A DNA stretch of 64,000 nt from Candidatus Staskawiczbacteria bacterium (lineage in GTDB: Bacteria; Patescibacteriota; Minisyncoccia; Minisyncoccales; Staskawiczbacteraceae): positions 139,034-203,033 of the forward strand of contig JAHFKV010000001.1 in NCBI GenBank assembly GCA_023245155.1, given 5' to 3'. Made by a program: the position numbers and the translations under genes. How positions within the stretch are numbered: position 1 is the first letter of the stretch; each line of letters starts with the position of its first letter. Below, one piece after another: positions 3,974 to 64,000 of this stretch. The notes under the pieces are model-generated. The model was given only the letters and a program-made list of their open reading frames with translations. It ran no database searches and was not told where the DNA came from.

Positions 3974-4002
3974 TTGACAAGGTTAATTGATTATGCTAAT
4001 AT
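3974..4002 (+). promoter_or_regulatory. sigma70-like promoter (TTGACA-17 nt-TAATAT)
   Basis: ttgaca at 3974-3979, a 17-nt spacer, and taatat at 3997-4002. It lies 60 nt upstream of the 4063 start. Confidence 0.55.
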
Positions 4003-7242: not shown

Positions 7243-7899
7243 CTAGGCCCGGCACCTTCGCAGCTCGCCGTACGTTTGCACTTGCTTGGGGAAACGTACG
7301 AATTGTTTGCAAACCCTGCAGATAATCTGATCTTCGGCGCTCGTAAGCGTTTTTCGGTCCATCCACCCCCTGCAGCCCGCATGCACACCCACGCAGCCAG
7401 ACAGCTCGCTTTCATTTCTGGTGTGATTGACGAAGTACTTCGGATCTATCAAAAGTGGCAGGGGTGGGTACTCGAGCAAAACGATTCTTTGCCCAAGCTG
7501 GACTGGTTCAAGCGGAACGCTCCGCTCAACTTCCGCGCACACCGCGTCGTAAAGCTCGTTTTCGTCTTCATCCCGGTTGATCCGTCCGAAATGGACGCGC
7601 TTGACCGCGCAGTCTAGCCAGCCCGTGGCAAAGTGGTCCGGTTCGCCCCGGCCATCAATCACCCTGTACGAACACAGGGAATTGACGGCGAAGGTGTCAC
7701 CAGTCGGACGACTATCCTGGTCCAGATAGTTGCCCCGGAGCTTACCGGGCAAAACATCGACTGGTTCAAAACCAGCGGCCTTGACGAGCTCAAGAAGAAC
7801 CTTTTCTCCTGGGCGATCAACTTTTTCGATTCGCGGCCAGTCGTGTCCCAACACCAGTTGAACGAATGGCATTATGACAGCATGGGGTTGCAGAGACAT
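7243..7899 (-). CDS. hypothetical protein encoded on GC-rich island A
   Basis: Start moved to M38 (MSLQPH...), preceded by AAAGGA. The longer ORF would overlap tRNA-Ser. 35/60 GC in lines 7321 and 7561. No family recognised. C-terminal Cys/His cluster (CVGVHAGC...CRVC). Confidence 0.5.
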   Translation of the reverse strand: MSLQPHAVIMPFVQLVLGHDWPRIEKVDRPGEKVLLELVKAAGFEPVDVLPGKLRGNYLDQDSRPTGDTFAVNSLCSYRVIDGRGEPDHFATGWLDCAVKRVHFGRINRDEDENELYDAVCAEVERSVPLEPVQLGQRIVLLEYPPLPLLIDPKYFVNHTRNESELSGCVGVHAGCRGWMDRKTLTSAEDQIICRVCKQFVRFPKQVQTYGELRRCRA

Positions 7900-8000
7900 T
7901 GCGGCGTCCTTTCTTGTTTTGGGTTCGGAAATGGGTTTGGAAAAATGTACTGATTGCTTAACATGGTATACCCTATAACCAGACAAGTCAACAAAAATTG

Positions 8001-8083
8001 CGGAGGGCACAGGATTCGAACCTGCACGGGATTTCTCCCACTGGTTTTCGAAACCAGCGCATTAGCCGTTCTGCCAACCCTCC
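8001..8083 (-). tRNA. tRNA-Ser(CGA), long variable arm
   Basis: Reverse complement gives acceptor ggagggt/gccctcc, anticodon stem ctggt/accag with loop ttCGAaa, and T-loop ggttcgaatcc. Confidence 0.85.
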
Positions 8084-8098
8084 AAAATGTTAATAATG

Positions 8099-8170
8099 TG
8101 CCCCCATCAGGAATTGAACCCAAATTTTTCCCTTAGGACGGGAACGTTCTATCCGTTGAACTATGGAGGC
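8099..8170 (-). tRNA. tRNA-Arg(CCT)
   Basis: Reverse complement gives acceptor gcctcca/tgggggc, anticodon stem ttccc/gggaa with loop gtCCTaa, and T-loop ggttcaattcc. Confidence 0.8.
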
Positions 8171-20951: not shown

Positions 20952-21005
20952 AAAAAAGTTAATCAGTATTAATTGCAATAAGTGTAGCAAAAACCAACAG
21001 CCATG

Positions 21006-21377
21006 TCAACCTTCCACCGCATTGGGGAAATAGTGAAGTTTAGCTACGCGAGTATTTTGATTGGCCAGAATACCAATGATGTCAATTTGGTAGGCCGCAT
21101 CCTGCCTGTACTTATTTTTTTCAAGCCAGATTTGAGCCATTTGGCGGAGCTTTCTTTGTTTTCGATAATCTACGTGTTCCTCGGGCGCAAAATTATAGCC
21201 ATTATCAGCCATAGCTTTCACTTCCACAAAATGAATCGTTTTGTCTCTTTTAGCAATAATGTCAATTTCTCCAAACGTTATCCTATAGTTTTTCCCTAGA
21301 ATTTTAAACCCCTTTTCCACCAGATATTCACAGGCCATTTTTTCACCCAAATCGCCCAACTCCTTGGTGGTCATCAC
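21006..21377 (-). CDS. yraN: YraN-family (UPF0102) endonuclease
   Basis: LGDLGEKMACEYLVEKGFKILGKNYRITFGEIDIIAKRDKTIHFVEVK is the family signature. Confidence 0.8.
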   Translation of the reverse strand: MMTTKELGDLGEKMACEYLVEKGFKILGKNYRITFGEIDIIAKRDKTIHFVEVKAMADNGYNFAPEEHVDYRKQRKLRQMAQIWLEKNKYRQDAAYQIDIIGILANQNTRVAKLHYFPNAVEG

Positions 21378-53212: not shown

Positions 53213-54219
53213 AGTAAATTGTTTTGCCGATTGTATTTTATTCCCAAATGGTCATAGGCTAATTTTGAGGCTACTCTTCCCTTTGGTGTACGTTCTAAAA
53301 ATCCCAGTTGCATTAAATAAGGTTCATACATGTCTAAAATCGTATCTTCTTCTTCAAGGGCGGCTGCTGCCAATGATTGCAGTCCCACCGGCCCGCCATC
53401 AAACTTTTCAATCAAAGCCAGTAAGATTTTAATGTCGCCTGGCTCTAGCCCCATTTCATCAACTTCCAAGGAGGCTAGTGCATGTTCGGTAATTTCCCGG
53501 GTTGCGATGCCCGTGCTTTTAACTTCTGCAAAATCCCGCACTCGTTTTAGCAGCCGGTTGGCCACCCGTGGGGTAAAGCGACTACGCGTGGCAATTACTT
53601 TAATGGCATCGGGCTCAATGCTTACTCCCAACAACTTGGCGCTCCGCTCAATAATTTTTTCAATATCTTTAGGTTTATAAAAATTTAATTGAAATGTTGC
53701 CCCAAAGCGATTCCTTAGCGGGGAAGAAAGCATGCCCGGCCGGGTGGTGGCGCCCACTAGGGTGAACCGCGGCAATTTTAATTCCATGGTTCGGGCCATG
53801 GGGCCTTTTCCTAAAATCAAATTCAATTTATATTCTTCCATAGCCGGATATAGGTATTCTTCAATGGATTTATGCATCCGATGTATTTCGTCTAAAAACA
53901 GCACATCACCTTCTTGTAAATTGGTTAAGATAGCCGCCAAATCTCCCGCTCGCTCAATGGCTGGGCCTGAAGTCGCGCGGATTTTCTTGCCCATTTCCAA
54001 TGCTATCAGTTGGGCTAAGGTGGTTTTACCCAAACCCGAATTTCCATAGAGCAATACATGGTCGGGCGAGCCTCCCCGCTGCTTGGCGGCGGCCAAAATC
54101 ACCTTAATATTTTCTTTAATATTCTCTTGGCCGACATAATCAGCCCAGGTTTTAGGGCGAAGGGCAGAATCGATGACCTGGTCATTAAGACTAGGTTTTT
54201 CGGGTGGGGGGCTTGACAT
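53209..54219 (-). CDS. ruvB: Holliday junction branch migration ATPase RuvB
   Basis: [12 protein letters not shown], Walker [12 protein letters not shown], Walker [10 protein letters not shown], and the C-terminal winged-helix region. Confidence 0.95.
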
Positions 54220-54280
54220 GGTTCACTTATTATGCTATGCTTAAGATATTGAGTTTATTGCCCTTATAGTACCATAAAAA

Positions 54281-59131: not shown

Positions 59132-59962
59132 ATGCCAGAATTACCCGAGGTTCAGACTACGGTAAACGGTTTGCAAAAAAGGGTCCTTGGCAGGACCTTT
59201 GTTCGTGTGTGGTCAGATTGGCAGAAGACAGTTACATTCCCCAGAAAATTTGCTGCATTTAAAAAACAGCTCAAAGGTAAGAAAATTCTACGGGTTTGGC
59301 GACGGGGTAAAAATGTGATTTTTGAATTGTCGGATGGATATTCTTTGTTAATTCATATGAAAATGACTGGGCATTTGCTGGTTGAGCCCTGGAATACACA
59401 AGATCCCATGAATGGCTATTTGCATATAATGTTCTTCCTGGATGATGGTCGTAAAATTGCCCTGTCTGATTTGCGCAAGTTCGCCAAAGTTGAATTACGG
59501 CCAACGAAAGAGCTGCTGCAAATCTTTGAGGGACTGGGGCCAGAGCCCTTAGAAAAAATTTTTACGTTTGAAAAATTTGAAAAATTATTTGTAAGAAAAA
59601 AGGGGAAGGTAAAAGAAATTATTATGCGGCCAAGTTTTATTGCGGGTATCGGCAACATTTATGCTTCCGAAGCTTTGTGGTGGGCAAAGATTCATCCAGC
59701 TAAAGATGTTTCGCGTTTGAATGCTCGGGAATTAAAACTATTATACGGCGCGATAAAAAAAGTATTACAACTGGGCATTAACTTTGGCGGTGACAGTTTT
59801 TCGGATTACCGGGACGTGGATGGCAATAAGGGAGAGTTTGAGGGTTCTAAAAAAGTCTATCAACGCGAAGGTGAAAAGTGTTTTCGGTGCAAGTCAGTCA
59901 TTAAAAGATTGGTTATTGCGCAGCGCAGTTCGTTTTATTGCCCGCGGTGTCAGAGGCTATAG
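59132..59962 (+). CDS. mutM: formamidopyrimidine-DNA glycosylase
   Basis: MPELPEVQT N-terminus, H2TH region, and C-terminal zinc finger CFRC...CPRCQ. Confidence 0.9.
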   Translation: MPELPEVQTTVNGLQKRVLGRTFVRVWSDWQKTVTFPRKFAAFKKQLKGKKILRVWRRGKNVIFELSDGYSLLIHMKMTGHLLVEPWNTQDPMNGYLHIMFFLDDGRKIALSDLRKFAKVELRPTKELLQIFEGLGPEPLEKIFTFEKFEKLFVRKKGKVKEIIMRPSFIAGIGNIYASEALWWAKIHPAKDVSRLNARELKLLYGAIKKVLQLGINFGGDSFSDYRDVDGNKGEFEGSKKVYQREGEKCFRCKSVIKRLVIAQRSSFYCPRCQRL

Positions 59963-59997: not shown

Positions 59998-60342
59998 GTG
60001 AAAATTGAAAAATTTGAAGAATTAATATGTTGGCAGAAAAGCAAAGAACTGTCCTTGCTGATGTATGGGTTATTTAAGAATAACAGAGATTTTAGTTTCT
60101 GTGATCAGATTAAGCGCGCAGTTGTGAGCGTTATGAATAATATAGCTGAAGGATTTGAGCGCCAAACCAACAAGGAGTTTACTCAATTTTTATATATTGC
60201 AAAAGGATCTTGTGGTGAGGCGAGATCGATGTGCTACATAGCACTGGAATTGGGATACATTTCGAAAGAGGATTTTGAAAAAGTAAATAGATTATCCCTC
60301 GATACAGCTAGATTAATTTCAGGCCTAATTAAGGTTTTATAG
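59998..60342 (+). CDS. four-helix-bundle protein (23S rRNA intervening-sequence protein family)
   Basis: FEELICWQKSKELSLLMY...IKRAVVSVMNNIAEGFERQTNKEFTQFLYIAKGSCGEARSMCYIALELGYI is the family signature. GTG start. Confidence 0.85.
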   Translation: MKIEKFEELICWQKSKELSLLMYGLFKNNRDFSFCDQIKRAVVSVMNNIAEGFERQTNKEFTQFLYIAKGSCGEARSMCYIALELGYISKEDFEKVNRLSLDTARLISGLIKVL

Positions 60343-60396: not shown

Positions 60397-61332
60397 ATGA
60401 TTATATTTCTATACGGGCCGGATTCCTATCGGTCCAAACAAAAATTAGATGAAATAATCAGTCACTATAAAGAGTCCGGGAAAAGCGGCTTGAATTTAAT
60501 TTCTGTTGATGCCAAGGAAAACGCTTTCCCTGATTTTTACGATACCCTTAGGGTTTCCTCCATGTTTGCTGAAAAAAAATTGGTTATTATAAAAAATGTG
60601 TTTGCCGGTAAGGGTTTTCAGGAGGAATTATTGGAAGAGATTAAAAACATAGAAAATTTAAAGGATGTGGTGGTTGTTTATGAAACCGAAGCGCCCGATC
60701 AGCGCTTAAAAATTTTTAAAACTCTCGTAAAAACCTGCAAATGCCAGGAATTTGCCCTATTAGAGGGGTCGGCTTTAAAGCAATGGGCTCAAAAAGAATT
60801 TGAACGTCTTGGGCAAAAATCCAATCTTGATGCCGCAGATCTTTTAGTGCAGTATGTGGGCAATGATTTGTGGCGTCTTGCGGCTGAAATAAAAAAATTG
60901 GGAAATTTTAAAAATGGAGCAACAATCAAAAAAGAAGATGTGTTGCTCATGGTAAAACCGCGCCTTGAAGTGGATATTTTTAAAACTATTGACGCTATGG
61001 CGGCAAAAAACAGACCACAAGCCCTTTCGTTGGTAAAAAAACATTTAGACAATGGCGAAGCGCCCCTGTATATTTTGAGTATGATTGCTTACCAGTATAA
61101 AAATTTACTGGTGGTAAAAGAATTGGCTCAAAAAGGATTTATGTATGCTTCTATTGTGAAAAAAAGCGGCCTGCACCCTTTTGTGGTTAAAAAAACGTAC
61201 TTTGCCTCAAGCCAGTTTTCACTTGAAGAGCTCAAAATTGCTTATCATAATATTTTCCAAATGGATTTAGATATCAAAACAGGCAAGATTGATCAGGAGG
61301 CAGCCTTGGAATTATTGGTCTCAAGCATCTAA
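60397..61332 (+). CDS. holA: DNA polymerase III delta subunit
   Basis: 311 aa with the MIIFLYGPDSYRSKQKLDEI start and a delta-like C-terminal helical domain. Confidence 0.8.
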   Translation: MIIFLYGPDSYRSKQKLDEIISHYKESGKSGLNLISVDAKENAFPDFYDTLRVSSMFAEKKLVIIKNVFAGKGFQEELLEEIKNIENLKDVVVVYETEAPDQRLKIFKTLVKTCKCQEFALLEGSALKQWAQKEFERLGQKSNLDAADLLVQYVGNDLWRLAAEIKKLGNFKNGATIKKEDVLLMVKPRLEVDIFKTIDAMAAKNRPQALSLVKKHLDNGEAPLYILSMIAYQYKNLLVVKELAQKGFMYASIVKKSGLHPFVVKKTYFASSQFSLEELKIAYHNIFQMDLDIKTGKIDQEAALELLVSSI

Positions 61333-61370: not shown

Positions 61371-61637
61371 TTATTTTGAATTTTTGCCTATAAGTTTTGC
61401 AATCCTGGATTTTTTTCTGGAGGCATTATTTTTTTTAATAATACCAACTTTGGCGGTTTTATCTAAAATTTCATATACTTTTGGCAATAAAGCTTGTGCC
61501 TCTTTTATTTTTTTCTCCGCAACAAAAGCCTTCACTTCTTTTACAAGTGCCTTCATTTTATTAATATAGATAAGGTTTCTTGCCCTTCGGGTTTTGTTTT
61601 GCCTTATCGCTTTTTTCGCTGATTTGATTATGGCCAC
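61371..61637 (-). CDS. rpsT: 30S ribosomal protein S20
   Basis: MAIIKSAKKAIRQNKTRRARN start. 88 aa, basic and helical. Confidence 0.9.
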   Translation of the reverse strand: MAIIKSAKKAIRQNKTRRARNLIYINKMKALVKEVKAFVAEKKIKEAQALLPKVYEILDKTAKVGIIKKNNASRKKSRIAKLIGKNSK

Positions 61638-61692
61638 GTTGGAAACATCATAACAGAAAATATATTATTTTGCAATGCCTCTGTGATTTTTT

Positions 61693-61740
61693 AGAAAAAA
61701 ACAAGCGCGACAAGTGGGACTAGATTCCACTTGTCGCGCT
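61693..61740 (-). terminator. terminator of island E gene
   Basis: agcgcgacaagtgg/ccacttgtcgcgct 14-bp perfect stem, followed on the minus strand by TGTTTTTTTCT. Confidence 0.85.
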
Positions 61741-61769
61741 TCCGTTAGTTTATCGCCTGGGTAGGCGGT

Positions 61770-62489
61770 TTACTTTTTCGCCGGTTGATCCGGCGGCTTC
61801 GGTGCCGGCGGAACGTCGGCTGGCAATGCTCTGCCGTCCGGTGGCGGAGGCGTTTCAGCCTTGGCGTCAGGCGCCGTCGGCTTGCCCATCATTTTGTCTC
61901 GGGCCGCTTTGGCTTCCGCAACTTTCCGCTGCATCTCTGCGAGCTTGCCGGCCGATTCTTCTTTCCCGGCTGCCCTCTTTTGCTCATCCTCTGCGACCTG
62001 GCGTTCTCGCTCCGCGCGCCCAGCTTCCCAATCCGCCTGGCGCTTTTGTTCTGCGGCCGCTTCTGCCTCCGCGGCCTCGGTGCGCTCGTCGTGAGCCTTC
62101 TTGAGCTCATCAACGACGCTCTTGAGTTCGGCGTGACCCTGGCCTCTGGCTTCTATCTCCGCGACCTTGAGGCAGAGATCCCGTAGGACACCTGCCAAAT
62201 CGCCGTCAGCCTCAGCGAGGATGGTGATTTCATCCTCTTGCCTCCTGTCAACTGGGTCCATTTGCAGTGCCTGGTCGGCCATGATCTTTTTCCCTTTCCC
62301 TGTGTAGTGGTGGTGGATGACCTGAATCGTAATTGAGCGACCCGCCGATGATCGCTTTCGCGCCGTCGGCTCTGACTTGGTTTCTGGTTTGGCGTTTTTA
62401 GGACGCCGAGCTTTGCCCTGCCCCTGGTTTTTGGGCGGACTCCGCGGCTTTTTAGAAGCTGCGGACGGCTTCTTTTTTCTGGCGGACAT
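61770..62489 (-). CDS. hypothetical basic / coiled-coil / Pro-rich protein encoded on GC-rich island E
   Basis: 239 aa with a K/R/P-rich N-terminus, an A/E/R coiled-coil centre and a PPAPKPP tail. 43/60 GC in line 61801. Strong SD GAAAGGAGGG 3 nt before the ATG. Confidence 0.5.
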   Translation of the reverse strand: MSARKKKPSAASKKPRSPPKNQGQGKARRPKNAKPETKSEPTARKRSSAGRSITIQVIHHHYTGKGKKIMADQALQMDPVDRRQEDEITILAEADGDLAGVLRDLCLKVAEIEARGQGHAELKSVVDELKKAHDERTEAAEAEAAAEQKRQADWEAGRAERERQVAEDEQKRAAGKEESAGKLAEMQRKVAEAKAARDKMMGKPTAPDAKAETPPPPDGRALPADVPPAPKPPDQPAKK

Positions 62490-62525
62490 AAGCCCTCCTT
62501 TCTTTGTGTAGGTTCTGGATATGAC

Positions 62526-62554
62526 ACCCTATCACGCCTAAACATATTTGTCAA
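62526..62554 (-). promoter_or_regulatory. putative promoter of island E gene (TTGACA-17 nt-TGaTAGGGT)
   Basis: Minus strand: TTGACA (62554-62549), 17-nt spacer, TAGGGT (62531-62526) with an extended-10 TG. Confidence 0.45.
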
Positions 62555-62611: not shown

Positions 62612-64000
62612 ATGATTCAAGAAACAAAGGTTACTACAAGGGAATCCGGAGATGATAAAAAACCGCTTGATGAAGTAATTGATGCAACTACCAGTCTTGC
62701 CGATACGCAACTGGAAACAATAAAACGACTGACTGCCTTAGAAAAAAAGGCTAAGGAGGGAGCACTATCTAATCAAGGTCAGCTAAAAGAAAGCCGGGGT
62801 TATGATATGACTCCTGAAGACGAGGAGCGGGAAAGACTAGCTGCCGCAGAATACAAAAGACTAAGAGGCGGTAAAGAAGAAGAACCGGTTATGCTTGAGG
62901 TGGCAACCCCAGCTCAGATTTTAAATAAAAAAAGTGAGGATTTGCAAAAGATACAAGAGCAATTAAAAACAGCCAGGCTTCTTGGTGATGTTGAAAGAGA
63001 AGAAGCTTTATTAGAAGAGCGTGATGCAAAGCTTGCTGAGGTAAAAGAGCTTATTGGCGAGGATTTTCAGGAAAAGATCACGGCAAAAACCAAAGAGAGG
63101 TTGGGAGAAAAAGGAATGACTGAGCGGGAGTTTAAAAAGAAAAAAATGCCGGGGATAAAGCGGGAACTGCTAGCGGAAAATAAAATGAATGCGGAAATAA
63201 TTTGTTGCAATTCCGGTCATGGCAAGAAGTTATTTGATTTAGACCAGAAGGATGGCGGAACCAGATTTGAATTTTATATGCAAGAAAAACTCGAAGCTTC
63301 AGGGCTTGATTCAGAAGAGTTTTATGGCATGATTTGCCGGGGCGTGCGGGTTGATCTTTTCCGTGAAAAGGTGGCTTTTTGGCGCAGCGTGGGTAATTTT
63401 GTGACCGGCAACGAAAGCGTGGCCCATAAATATGAAATACCAACGGGGCCTGAGGGACCCGACGAGGTTATTAAACTTTCGGAAAGCGAATTAAAAGCGT
63501 TTTTATTTGATCAGGCAAAAAAACAGGAAGCAGAAATCAAGAAAGAATCTGAAAAAAGATTTTCCCGAAAATTAAGGGAAGGCAAAGCCAGGTTACAGGA
63601 AACAAAGGTTGGGGTTGCCCAAGAAATTATTGATGAAGCGCTGGAAACGGGCCAGGTGGCCAAGGTGGGCAAGGCTGCTGAAAACGTGCCCAAAGAGAGT
63701 GAATATGATGCATTTAAGAAAGATACTCCACCCATTCCTGCTGGGTTTTTTGCCAGTTATGGAGAAAAACTGAAAAAGACGAAAAAAAATGAAAAAGAAA
63801 CAAGGGAGGGTGCCCGGGCAGGACTCAGGGAAAACCTTGGCCTTGATGAAAAAATCAGGATGCAGGAAAGAGCACTGGCAGAGTGCGAAATATTTATCGA
63901 TCAGGAAATTGAAAATAATCCTGATGTAGAAAAAGGAACGTTAACAGCATGGGTGGAAAAATTTGCCACAGATTATGATTTTAGGAAAGAGCAAAAAGAA
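62612..64000 (+). CDS. large hypothetical protein, 3'-truncated by window end (not in ORF track)
   Basis: Open frame from ATG 62612 (GAGGA 12 nt upstream) to the window edge, at least 463 codons. MIQETKVTTRESGDDKK...; K/E-rich; no family recognised. Confidence 0.55.
   Translation, partial: MIQETKVTTRESGDDKKPLDEVIDATTSLADTQLETIKRLTALEKKAKEGALSNQGQLKESRGYDMTPEDEERERLAAAEYKRLRGGKEEEPVMLEVATPAQILNKKSEDLQKIQEQLKTARLLGDVEREEALLEERDAKLAEVKELIGEDFQEKITAKTKERLGEKGMTEREFKKKKMPGIKRELLAENKMNAEIICCNSGHGKKLFDLDQKDGGTRFEFYMQEKLEASGLDSEEFYGMICRGVRVDLFREKVAFWRSVGNFVTGNESVAHKYEIPTGPEGPDEVIKLSESELKAFLFDQAKKQEAEIKKESEKRFSRKLREGKARLQETKVGVAQEIIDEALETGQVAKVGKAAENVPKESEYDAFKKDTPPIPAGFFASYGEKLKKTKKNEKETREGARAGLRENLGLDEKIRMQERALAECEIFIDQEIENNPDVEKGTLTAWVEKFATDYDFRKEQKE

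Follow-up and report, generated by a model that had tools for sequence, protein, structure and literature searches.

The 64,000-nucleotide stretch analysed here (the window) comes from contig JAHFKV010000001.1 of a Candidatus Staskawiczbacteria bacterium. Near its end, directly upstream of rpsT, the gene for ribosomal protein bS20, an ATG-start open reading frame (ORF) of 239 amino acids (aa) was located at 61770-62489 of the minus strand, TAA stop included; its product is designated P0001. The gene order of the region is fpg, a 23S rRNA-IVP-family gene, holA, rpsT, the 239-aa gene, a large ORF, uvrB and ruvA (Table 1). The G+C (GC) content of the 239-aa ORF was 0.603, compared with 0.431 for the whole window and 0.590 for the segment 61693-62505. 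It represented the GC maximum among all 720-bp windows of the stretch, 4.6 standard deviations above the mean, and its richest 60-mer (61781-61840) reached 0.72, or 43 of 60 positions. GC by codon position was 0.69 (GC1), 0.48 (GC2) and 0.64 (GC3). Just outside the start and stop codons the GC content fell to 0.32-0.38, and the GC step matched the ends of the coding sequence (CDS). Long antisense ORFs were also present over the GC-rich CDS. A preliminary description of the window had reported this minus-strand ORF, named it as the GC-richest stretch (43/60), regarded its product as unlike the rest of the window and noted its divergence from a large ORF at 62612. These points could be reproduced: the translation was exactly as quoted, the protein composition was highly atypical for the window, and the large ORF starts at that position on the plus strand.

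The gene carries its own expression signals. The promoter TTGACA-17-TGaTAGGGT and the Shine-Dalgarno (SD) sequence given in the preliminary description could both be read, at 62554-62526 and 62502-62493, respectively. The TG of the extended -10 element lies at 62534-62533, and the SD GAAAGGAGGG, situated 3 nt before the ATG, forms an anti-SD duplex of -12.4 kcal/mol. The terminator of the preliminary description was also confirmed, but its perfect stem consists of 15 bp (61741-61727 / 61717-61703) and not of 14 bp; it encloses a 9-nt loop and is followed by G and U7 (61701-61695). The folding free energy of the terminator was -35.5 kcal/mol (z = -6.4 vs shuffles), and the rpsT promoter lies just downstream of it. 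Because the -10 hexamer TAGGGT is weak, matching at three of six positions, a generic promoter scan missed the promoter of the 239-aa gene. The pattern TTGACA-N14-TGnTAnnnT occurred four times in the window, at 3974-4002 (+), 20981-21009 (-), 54213-54241 (+) and 62526-62554 (-), where 0.05 occurrences were expected, and none of 100 shuffles reached four. With this excess, the pattern looks like a real, distinct and strong extended -10 promoter class of the host organism. The promoter, untranslated region (UTR) and terminator flanks of the gene are AT-rich and of host type.

The locus is no assembly chimera. An independently assembled Logan contig (L001, from SRR14366769) was 100% identical over 8,819 bp, across both borders of the GC-rich segment, and the NCBI, ENA and Logan assemblies together contained at least six contigs with the exact protein, the longest measuring 661,750 bp. 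The preliminary description had raised the concern of a chimeric assembly, which was not borne out; independent assemblies are continuous over the borders and the relatives are syntenic.

An exhaustive phmmer search of 1.84 billion representatives revealed a sole relative of P0001, designated P0002, with a length of 250 aa (E 9e-6). The two proteins were colinear over the full length with 27-31% identity (pairwise BLASTP E 7e-12), and their alignment reached z = 10.8 against region-preserving shuffles. When the segments were scored separately, the helical middle reached z = 14.5, the N-terminal tail (N-tail) z = 3.9, a score attained by 2 of 1000 shuffles, and the C-terminal tail (C-tail) z = 0, its likeness being compositional only. 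P0002 is encoded on L002, a 1,007-bp Logan metagenome contig with low-GC flanks which reads into the start of rpsT (MAITKSAKKAI), and P0002 therefore occupies the same genomic position as P0001. The expression signals on L002 consisted of TTGACA-N14-TGTATAAT, GAAAGGAGG-N4-ATG and a hairpin terminator.

Among 5.8 billion clusters, a word-indexed search with P0001 recovered the query alone, and a profile of P0001 and P0002 retrieved no further relatives. When a hidden Markov model (HMM) of the two proteins was run against the six-frame ORFs of 84 related loci, only P0001 and P0002 themselves were recovered. Phage DNA and protein searches and a plasmid tblastn search gave no match to P0001, and IMG/VR and the JGI metagenomes, searched both by alignment and with the back-translated motif WExGxAERER, gave only chance motif matches among the matches listed. 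Altogether, no homologue of P0001 besides P0002 was found in approximately 15 billion proteins and in the phage and plasmid collections. Pfam, NCBIfam, PHROGs, PADLOC and the PDB sequence profile showed nothing above noise for P0001, and Foldseek against PDB and BFVD showed nothing at E <= 0.001. The preliminary description had called the protein composition typical of high-GC organisms and advised a search of Actinobacteria, Proteobacteria and phages; no homologue was found in any high-GC organism, P0002 being the sole relative. Judged by these comparisons, the 239-aa gene founds an orphan family of two members that occurs in one lineage only.

Table 1. Coordinates of the 239-aa gene, its signals and protein segments, and the neighbouring genes in the window (AF2, AlphaFold2; pLDDT, predicted local distance difference test score)
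Feature	Coordinates	Strand	Description
239-aa CDS	61770-62489	-	ORF and composition; colinear homologue P0002
Promoter of 239-aa gene	62526-62554	-	TTGACA 62554-62549, 17-nt spacer, TAGGGT 62531-62526
5' UTR with SD GAAAGGAGGG	62493-62511	-	SD 62502-62493
N-tail, codons 1-69	62283-62489	-	Polybasic, Pro/Gly/Ser-rich, disordered; AF2 pLDDT < 50
Candidate internal ribosome-binding site and in-frame ATG (M70)	62280-62307	-	Repeat copy 2; ATG 62282-62280
Amphipathic helix, residues 79-115	62145-62255	-	AF2 helix 79-115
Long helix, residues 119-200	61890-62135	-	82 residues, ~12 nm; AF2 pLDDT 84-93
C-tail, residues 201-239	61773-61889	-	Proline-rich, predicted disordered; 13 Pro in 39 residues
Intrinsic terminator	61695-61741	-	Inverted repeat I3; shares homology with that of the L213 slot gene
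rpsT promoter	61647-61675	-	TTGCAA-17-TATGAT, extended -10 TG; kept in all relatives aligned
rpsT (ribosomal protein bS20)	61371-61637	-	Pfam PF01649; GC 0.32, GC3 0.29; kept in ~80 loci
holA	60397-61332		Convergent with rpsT
23S rRNA-IVP-family gene (PF05635)	59998-60342	+	Between fpg and holA
fpg	59132-59962		Neighbour gene
Divergent large ORF	62612-64000	+	1275 aa in full contig; GC 0.42, GC3 0.36

The fpg-holA-rpsT arrangement was conserved across approximately 80 related loci (cited below by L numbers), with holA homologues of up to 73% identity in Candidatus Staskawiczbacteria and other Parcubacteria metagenome-assembled genomes. By these homologues, the window belongs to a bacterium of the Candidate Phyla Radiation (CPR) with ~43% GC. 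The space upstream of rpsT, hereafter the slot, was occupied differently among the related loci. In L006, the closest GTDB species representative (holA 73%), rpsT and the homologue of the large ORF are divergent and 118 bp apart with no slot gene. In L003 and L211, uvrB directly abuts rpsT and no slot gene is present, while L216 carries a DnaJ-domain ORF upstream of rpsT and no slot gene of this kind. The slot gene and the large ORF also occur separately, L024 having the former without the latter and L006 the latter without the former. The preliminary description had considered that orthologues of similar GC might be conserved in all relatives; GC-rich slot genes were found in some of them, but none in L006 and several others.

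The locus L213 (holA 70%) harbours a 248-aa ORF upstream of rpsT and on the same strand as rpsT. Its product has the architecture of P0001, comprising a 67-aa K/R/P-rich N-tail, a Met, a heptad helix, a charged helix and a Pro-rich tail, and its likeness to P0001 is compositional only (z = -0.4; BLASTP and hhalign not significant). In the 3' flank of the L213 gene, 136 nt were homologous to the window, with 69% identity (E 2e-10). The aligned flank extends from the last ~30 nt of the CDS through the terminator and up to the rpsT promoter, including the spacer before it, and the terminator stems are nearly identical. As rpsT itself is 78% identical between the window and L213, the flank has diverged about as much as the host DNA. 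From the homologous flank we infer an old residence of the cassette in the clade. Two further loci, L008 (139 aa) and L019 (185 aa), encode helical proteins with a K/R-rich N-tail and a Met at the tail-helix junction. The L213, L008 and L019 proteins are linked to P0001 by their position, flanks and architecture. The promoter layout of the 239-aa gene was also found ahead of the slot genes in L002, L008, L019 and L213, and those of L212 and L024 have a perfect TTGACA -35 element, with a 16-nt spacer in L212 and no extended -10 TG in L024.

The slots of L212, L011, L024 and L021 contain short helical proteins of ~120-140 aa, some of them with an EH(I/L)RHD motif. A second small slot family could be recognised in L011 (8424-8786 and 8913-9269, minus strand, in tandem), L212 (6753-7130, minus strand) and L024 (3330-3758, minus strand); the L011 and L024 proteins matched each other weakly (phmmer ~1e-4), and that of L024 has an added Pro/Glu/Gly-rich tail and a GC content of 0.66. 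In L021 (8790-9329, minus strand) the mechanically assigned M1 falls within the promoter region and lacks an SD, while M57 has a strong SD of -8.0 kcal/mol; the real product is probably ~123 aa long and starts from M57. Unrelated GC-rich ORFs occupy the slot of L010 (2217-3353, minus strand; 378 aa) and L023 (8990-10075, plus strand; 361 aa), where the slot patches have a GC content of 0.52-0.58 vs 0.39-0.40 for the locus. This suggests that the site upstream of rpsT repeatedly accumulates GC-rich genes. None of the slot proteins of L213, L008, L019, L021, L024, L011 and L017 was significantly similar to P0001 or P0002 by BLASTP, phmmer or hhalign.

No convincing direct or inverted repeats marking an insertion were found flanking the gene, no integrase, transposase or tRNA target was found at the site, and no template repeat of the diversity-generating retroelement type was present elsewhere in the window. 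On comparison of these loci, the rpsT-uvrB slot is hypervariable within an otherwise conserved fpg-holA-rpsT-uvrB-ruvA neighbourhood. The 239-aa gene, on the same comparison, is one resident slot type, for which sequence identifies at least one orthologue (P0002) and position and flank identify another (L213).

The composition of P0001 is rich in Ala (17%), Lys (13%), Glu (10%), Pro (9%) and Arg (8%). Under host codon usage, a GC content of 0.54 was predicted from the amino acids, compared with the observed 0.60 and with 0.43 for host genes. The amino-acid composition thus accounts for ~0.11 of the GC excess of ~0.17, and therefore about two-thirds of the excess is compositional and about one-third synonymous. 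The compositional part is carried by Ala, Pro, Arg, Gly and Glu. The excess over prediction was +0.07, vs -0.004 +/- 0.019 in the other 58 ORFs, and the GC3 of 0.64 compares with 0.43 +/- 0.057 in host genes. The synonymous shift was evident in CCG (62% in the gene vs 22% in the host), CTC (60% vs 7%), GTC (56% vs 11%), AAG (57% vs 26%) and GAG (50% vs 23%), and ACG was likewise strongly over-used.

A similar regime was observed in the slot genes of the relatives, whose GC3 exceeded that of their hosts in L213 (0.61 vs 0.37), L008 (0.74 vs 0.36), L024 (0.76 vs 0.48), L212 (0.60 vs 0.45) and L019 (0.40 vs 0.27). In relative synonymous codon usage (RSCU), slot genes correlated with one another at r = 0.3-0.6 and with their own hosts at r about 0, while host-host correlations were 0.5-0.9. 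High expression as the cause of the elevated GC3 was rejected, since the GC3 of rpsT is 0.29. Both this value and the 0.36 of the large ORF are host-like, the GC3-rich regime being restricted to the slot locus. Another GC-rich orphan gene of the window was found at 7243-7899 (minus strand; GC 0.54, GC3 0.59), whose own signals comprise the promoter TTGACT-17-TATACC, an SD reading GAAAGGA and a hairpin downstream. It lies directly after tRNA-Ser(cga) (8000-8083) and tRNA-Arg(cct) (8098-8170), and tRNA genes are a classical integration site. Its product starts with MSLQPHAV..., looks globular and has no Pfam or PADLOC match.

The product of the 239-aa gene is predicted to be elongated and largely non-globular. 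The N-tail has a pI of 11.9 and contains 21 Lys and Arg residues vs 2 Asp and Glu residues, together with 7 Pro; the pI values of the middle and the C-tail are 4.8 and 8.1. AF2 predicted residues 1-66 and 201-239 to be disordered, and the AF2 model of P0002 showed the same plan, with a helix over residues 90-208. Residues ~85-126 are heptad-compatible, with a hydrophobic occupancy of the a/d positions of up to 0.88, and are probably an oligomerisation segment. Residues 127-190 are ~50% charged and at most 11% hydrophobic, with an a/d occupancy of at most 0.38 and 3-5 i/i+4 opposite-charge pairs per 28 residues, these being crude counts made with no dedicated predictor of single alpha-helices (SAH). 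This part looks like an ER/K SAH and not like a canonical coiled coil. The motifs best kept with P0002, namely LKxAHD, WExGxAERER and K(V/I)AExxAAR, are all situated in the long helix. A basic head, a coiled-coil centre and a proline-rich tail had been proposed in the preliminary description; the basic, helical and proline-rich nature of the three parts held, but the centre (AEAEAAAEQKRQ...) is better regarded as charged and SAH-like, with heptads only at ~85-126. A signal peptide or transmembrane anchor was considered and rejected, as there is no hydrophobic core and the hydrophobic fraction is 0-0.07 over residues 1-56. Neither the family profile nor the alpha1-alpha2/3 hairpin core of PspA/IM30/ESCRT-III was matched, with no Pfam hit and nothing at E <= 0.001 by Foldseek against PDB.

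The predicted helix can be compared to ER/K SAH and TolA domain II helices by its ~65 residues, ~50% charge, many i/i+4 pairs and almost complete lack of a hydrophobic seam. It differs from ER/K SAHs in that no sequence homology exists and a heptad helix adjoins it, so that a partial coiled coil is possible, and the likeness comes from prediction. Chlamydial Hc1 and the C-tail of mycobacterial HupB are Lys/Pro/Ala-rich, histone H1-like nucleoid proteins. In composition only, the K/R/P/S/G-rich disordered segment of pI 11.9 and the PAKK-like C-terminal end of P0001 resemble this type; unlike in such proteins, the basic segment is N-terminal to the helices, and no Pfam or NCBIfam match was obtained at E <= 1 apart from noise.

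A candidate second start could be recognised at M70, at the presumed module boundary between the N-tail and the helices. Positions 62511-62497 (CTACACAAAGAAAGG) are the first copy of a 15-nt direct repeat (family D5), whose second copy, CTACACAGGGAAAGG (62307-62293), is identical at 13 of 15 positions and lies 204 nt (68 codons) downstream. The SD duplex at the M70 site was -5.5 kcal/mol. On L002, the motif TTTGAAAGGAG stands ahead of both M1 and M76. In five slot genes (window, L002, L008, L019 and L213), the junction Mets, which were picked by eye, had SD values of -5.2 to -8.4 kcal/mol, and 12.7% of internal in-frame ATGs in host genes reach <= -5 kcal/mol as background. Against the purine-rich local background, the composition-aware combined p for the junction Mets was ~0.02. 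The AAAGG core occurs in differing codon phases among the slot genes, which points to a signal at the nucleotide level. Two isoforms of 239 and 170 aa, translated from M1 and M70, may be hypothesised. Genes with two in-frame starts include IF2 alpha/beta, ClpB, CheA L/S and lambda S107/S105. The 239-aa gene resembles them by an internal ATG with an SD-like site at the presumed module boundary, this site being a near-copy of the primary one in both the window and L002; it differs in having no homology to them and in being a candidate from sequence alone at a combined p of ~0.02.

Among the neighbours, the large ORF has no Pfam domain and continues in L001 (3-3221, minus strand). Its homologues occur patchily at the same position, with 50% identity over 281 aa in L212, 49% over 202 aa in L006 and 27% in L017, and its product appears to be a large, rapidly evolving protein of several domains. 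The PF05635 gene was present at the fpg-holA position only in some relatives (L012, L021 and L215), so it is another small presence/absence polymorphism of the neighbourhood. Type IV pilus / type II secretion system (T2SS) ATPase genes were located within ~6 kb of the 239-aa gene, and an Rfam scan of the region gave no match.

With a probability of roughly 0.6, these results are best explained by a genuine, autonomously transcribed and lineage-restricted gene residing in the hypervariable rpsT slot, which is neither a chimera nor a demonstrable recent import from a high-GC source, and whose product, kept in architecture, may serve as a scaffold tethered to a polyanion. A strong promoter of the host class and the SD would drive the gene, and its own terminator would close the transcript. 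The sequence would evolve almost freely while composition and architecture are retained, which would explain why only one homologue with 27-31% identity exists and why, in the positional orthologue of L213, the likeness is limited to the 3' flank and the architecture. In the further course of this proposal, the heptad helix would oligomerise, and electrostatic attraction of the polybasic tail would tether the oligomer to a polyanion, for which DNA or rRNA is the most likely candidate. The charged helix would project together with the Pro-rich tail as a rigid spacer or scaffold. The tail-less isoform started from M70 could tune the number of tethers per oligomer (valency). This tether and scaffold mechanism, including the tail-less isoform, is a tentative suggestion from predicted structure and is considerably less probable than the genuine nature of the gene. 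In its lone homologue, its architecture kept over residue order and its high disorder, the gene resembles the disordered, fast-evolving ORFan genes of bacteria. It is unlike de novo or decaying ORFans, being a 239-aa gene in a recurrent slot with strong, conserved expression signals and a non-host codon regime.

Several observations weigh against this explanation. The closest species representative, L006, has no such gene, and the L213, L008 and L019 proteins show no residue-level similarity to P0001 beyond composition (z -0.4 to 2.7). The functional proposal is based on composition and predicted architecture, with no signal from family, fold or context, and the internal SD of the window gene taken alone is unremarkable in its purine-rich context (p = 0.23). 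The codon usage is foreign-looking, with an RSCU correlation with the host of r = -0.14, and in several lineages GC3 has not relaxed to host values, contrary to simple vertical descent. The unrelaxed GC3 favours a repeated replacement or import, or a selective or conversion bias. Relaxation of GC3 would be expected under vertical descent, and donor homologues together with non-host signals under recent import; neither was seen.

The most serious alternative, although an improbable one, is a horizontal acquisition like that of phage morons, in which the cassette was imported or repeatedly replaced from an unsampled donor of higher GC, such as a different CPR lineage, a phage of CPR bacteria or the host of the symbiont, at a recombination hot spot upstream of rpsT, and would act as an accessory or conflict factor. 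Morons are defined by their own promoter and terminator, a deviant GC content and their nature as extra DNA relative to related genomes (PMC3594210). The 239-aa gene fits this definition in its promoter-gene-terminator layout and deviant GC: a sigma-70-type promoter and an intrinsic terminator of its own flank this single gene, its GC of 0.60 compares with 0.32 for rpsT and 0.42 for the large ORF, and it constitutes extra DNA between genes that are adjacent in L006 (118 bp). The acquisition is further favoured by the absence of the gene from L006, L003, L211 and L216, the unrelated GC-rich genes in the same slot of L010 and L023, the GC-rich orphan beside tRNA-Ser, and the codon regime (GC3 0.64 vs 0.43; CCG, CTC, GTC, ACG, AAG and GAG over-used; RSCU r = -0.14). 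Unlike a phage moron, however, the gene is not situated in a phage or prophage but among fpg, holA, rpsT, uvrB and ruvA, has no phage or IMG/VR match, is driven by a promoter of host class, and has a 3' flank that co-diverged with the host (69% over 136 nt, with rpsT at 78%), which points to old residence. Moreover, no donor homologue was found in the ~15 billion proteins or in the phage, plasmid, IMG/VR and JGI metagenome collections, the GC shift ends exactly at the CDS borders, and the site has no integrase, flanking repeat or tRNA. A genomic island from a high-GC donor would resemble the gene in its atypical base composition and codon usage, but here the donor-lineage homologues and mobility signatures are missing and the non-coding flanks are not foreign in composition. 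Of the insert from a high-GC organism proposed in the preliminary description, the alien codon usage therefore stands, while the missing donor homologue, the CDS-confined GC step, the host-class promoter and the homologous L213 flank speak against the remainder. The gene may have been of foreign origin at some point.

Still less probable is a role as an envelope or host-interaction factor, either an extracytoplasmic spacer like TolA or TonB, or an effector that an episymbiont secretes and that is under diversifying selection. TolA domain II and TonB are characterised by long helices rich in Ala, Glu and Lys and by Pro-rich spacers, to which the extended charged helix and Pro-rich tail of P0001 would correspond. 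Its very fast sequence turnover with kept architecture is a pattern typical of conflict and surface proteins, the ORF next to its gene is huge, evolves fast and has no known domain, and the type IV pilus / T2SS ATPase genes are close by. Such a location is opposed by the lack of a signal peptide and of a transmembrane segment, the polybasic N-terminus having no hydrophobic core, by the lack of any TolA or TonB family match, and by the independent occurrence of the slot gene and the large ORF (L024, L006). The 239-aa protein also differs from TolA in having neither its membrane anchor nor its C-terminal domain. An artefact, either a chimeric join of high-GC and low-GC DNA or a spurious ORF in GC-rich non-coding DNA, could be suspected from the abrupt composition change and from the long antisense ORFs typical of GC-rich DNA, but is effectively refuted, since an independent assembly is identical at both junctions and the exact protein stands on several contigs of up to 661 kb, other genomes have homologous or analogous cassettes at this position, the protein-level conservation with P0002 is colinear and extends to the N-tail, and host-type expression signals lie exactly at the ORF borders.

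Beyond the genuine, lineage-restricted gene favoured here, a wider and distinctly speculative proposal would regard the site upstream of rpsT as a dedicated cassette slot for highly expressed, dual-start helical proteins with polycationic tails, in which composition, architecture and GC3 regime are kept while the sequences are turned over or swapped beyond alignment. If true, these would constitute a new class of disordered proteins associated with the nucleoid or ribosome of CPR bacteria; alternatively, the locus would be one shaped by recurrent cassette exchange or GC-biased conversion. The genomes of CPR bacteria (Patescibacteria) are small, approximately half of their genes have no assigned function, and many canonical factors are lacking. 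Given its strong promoter, ribosomal-gene neighbour and recurrent architecture, the product of the 239-aa gene is plausible as an abundant structural component of the nucleoid, ribosome or envelope. The gene may be considered an interesting but not exceptional CPR orphan, whose most notable aspects are the recurrence of the GC3-rich slot and a possible second start. The locus provides a test case both for the evolution of composition-constrained disordered proteins and for the maintenance of a GC3-rich regime inside AT-biased genomes, whether by hidden gene flow, biased gene conversion or mRNA selection.

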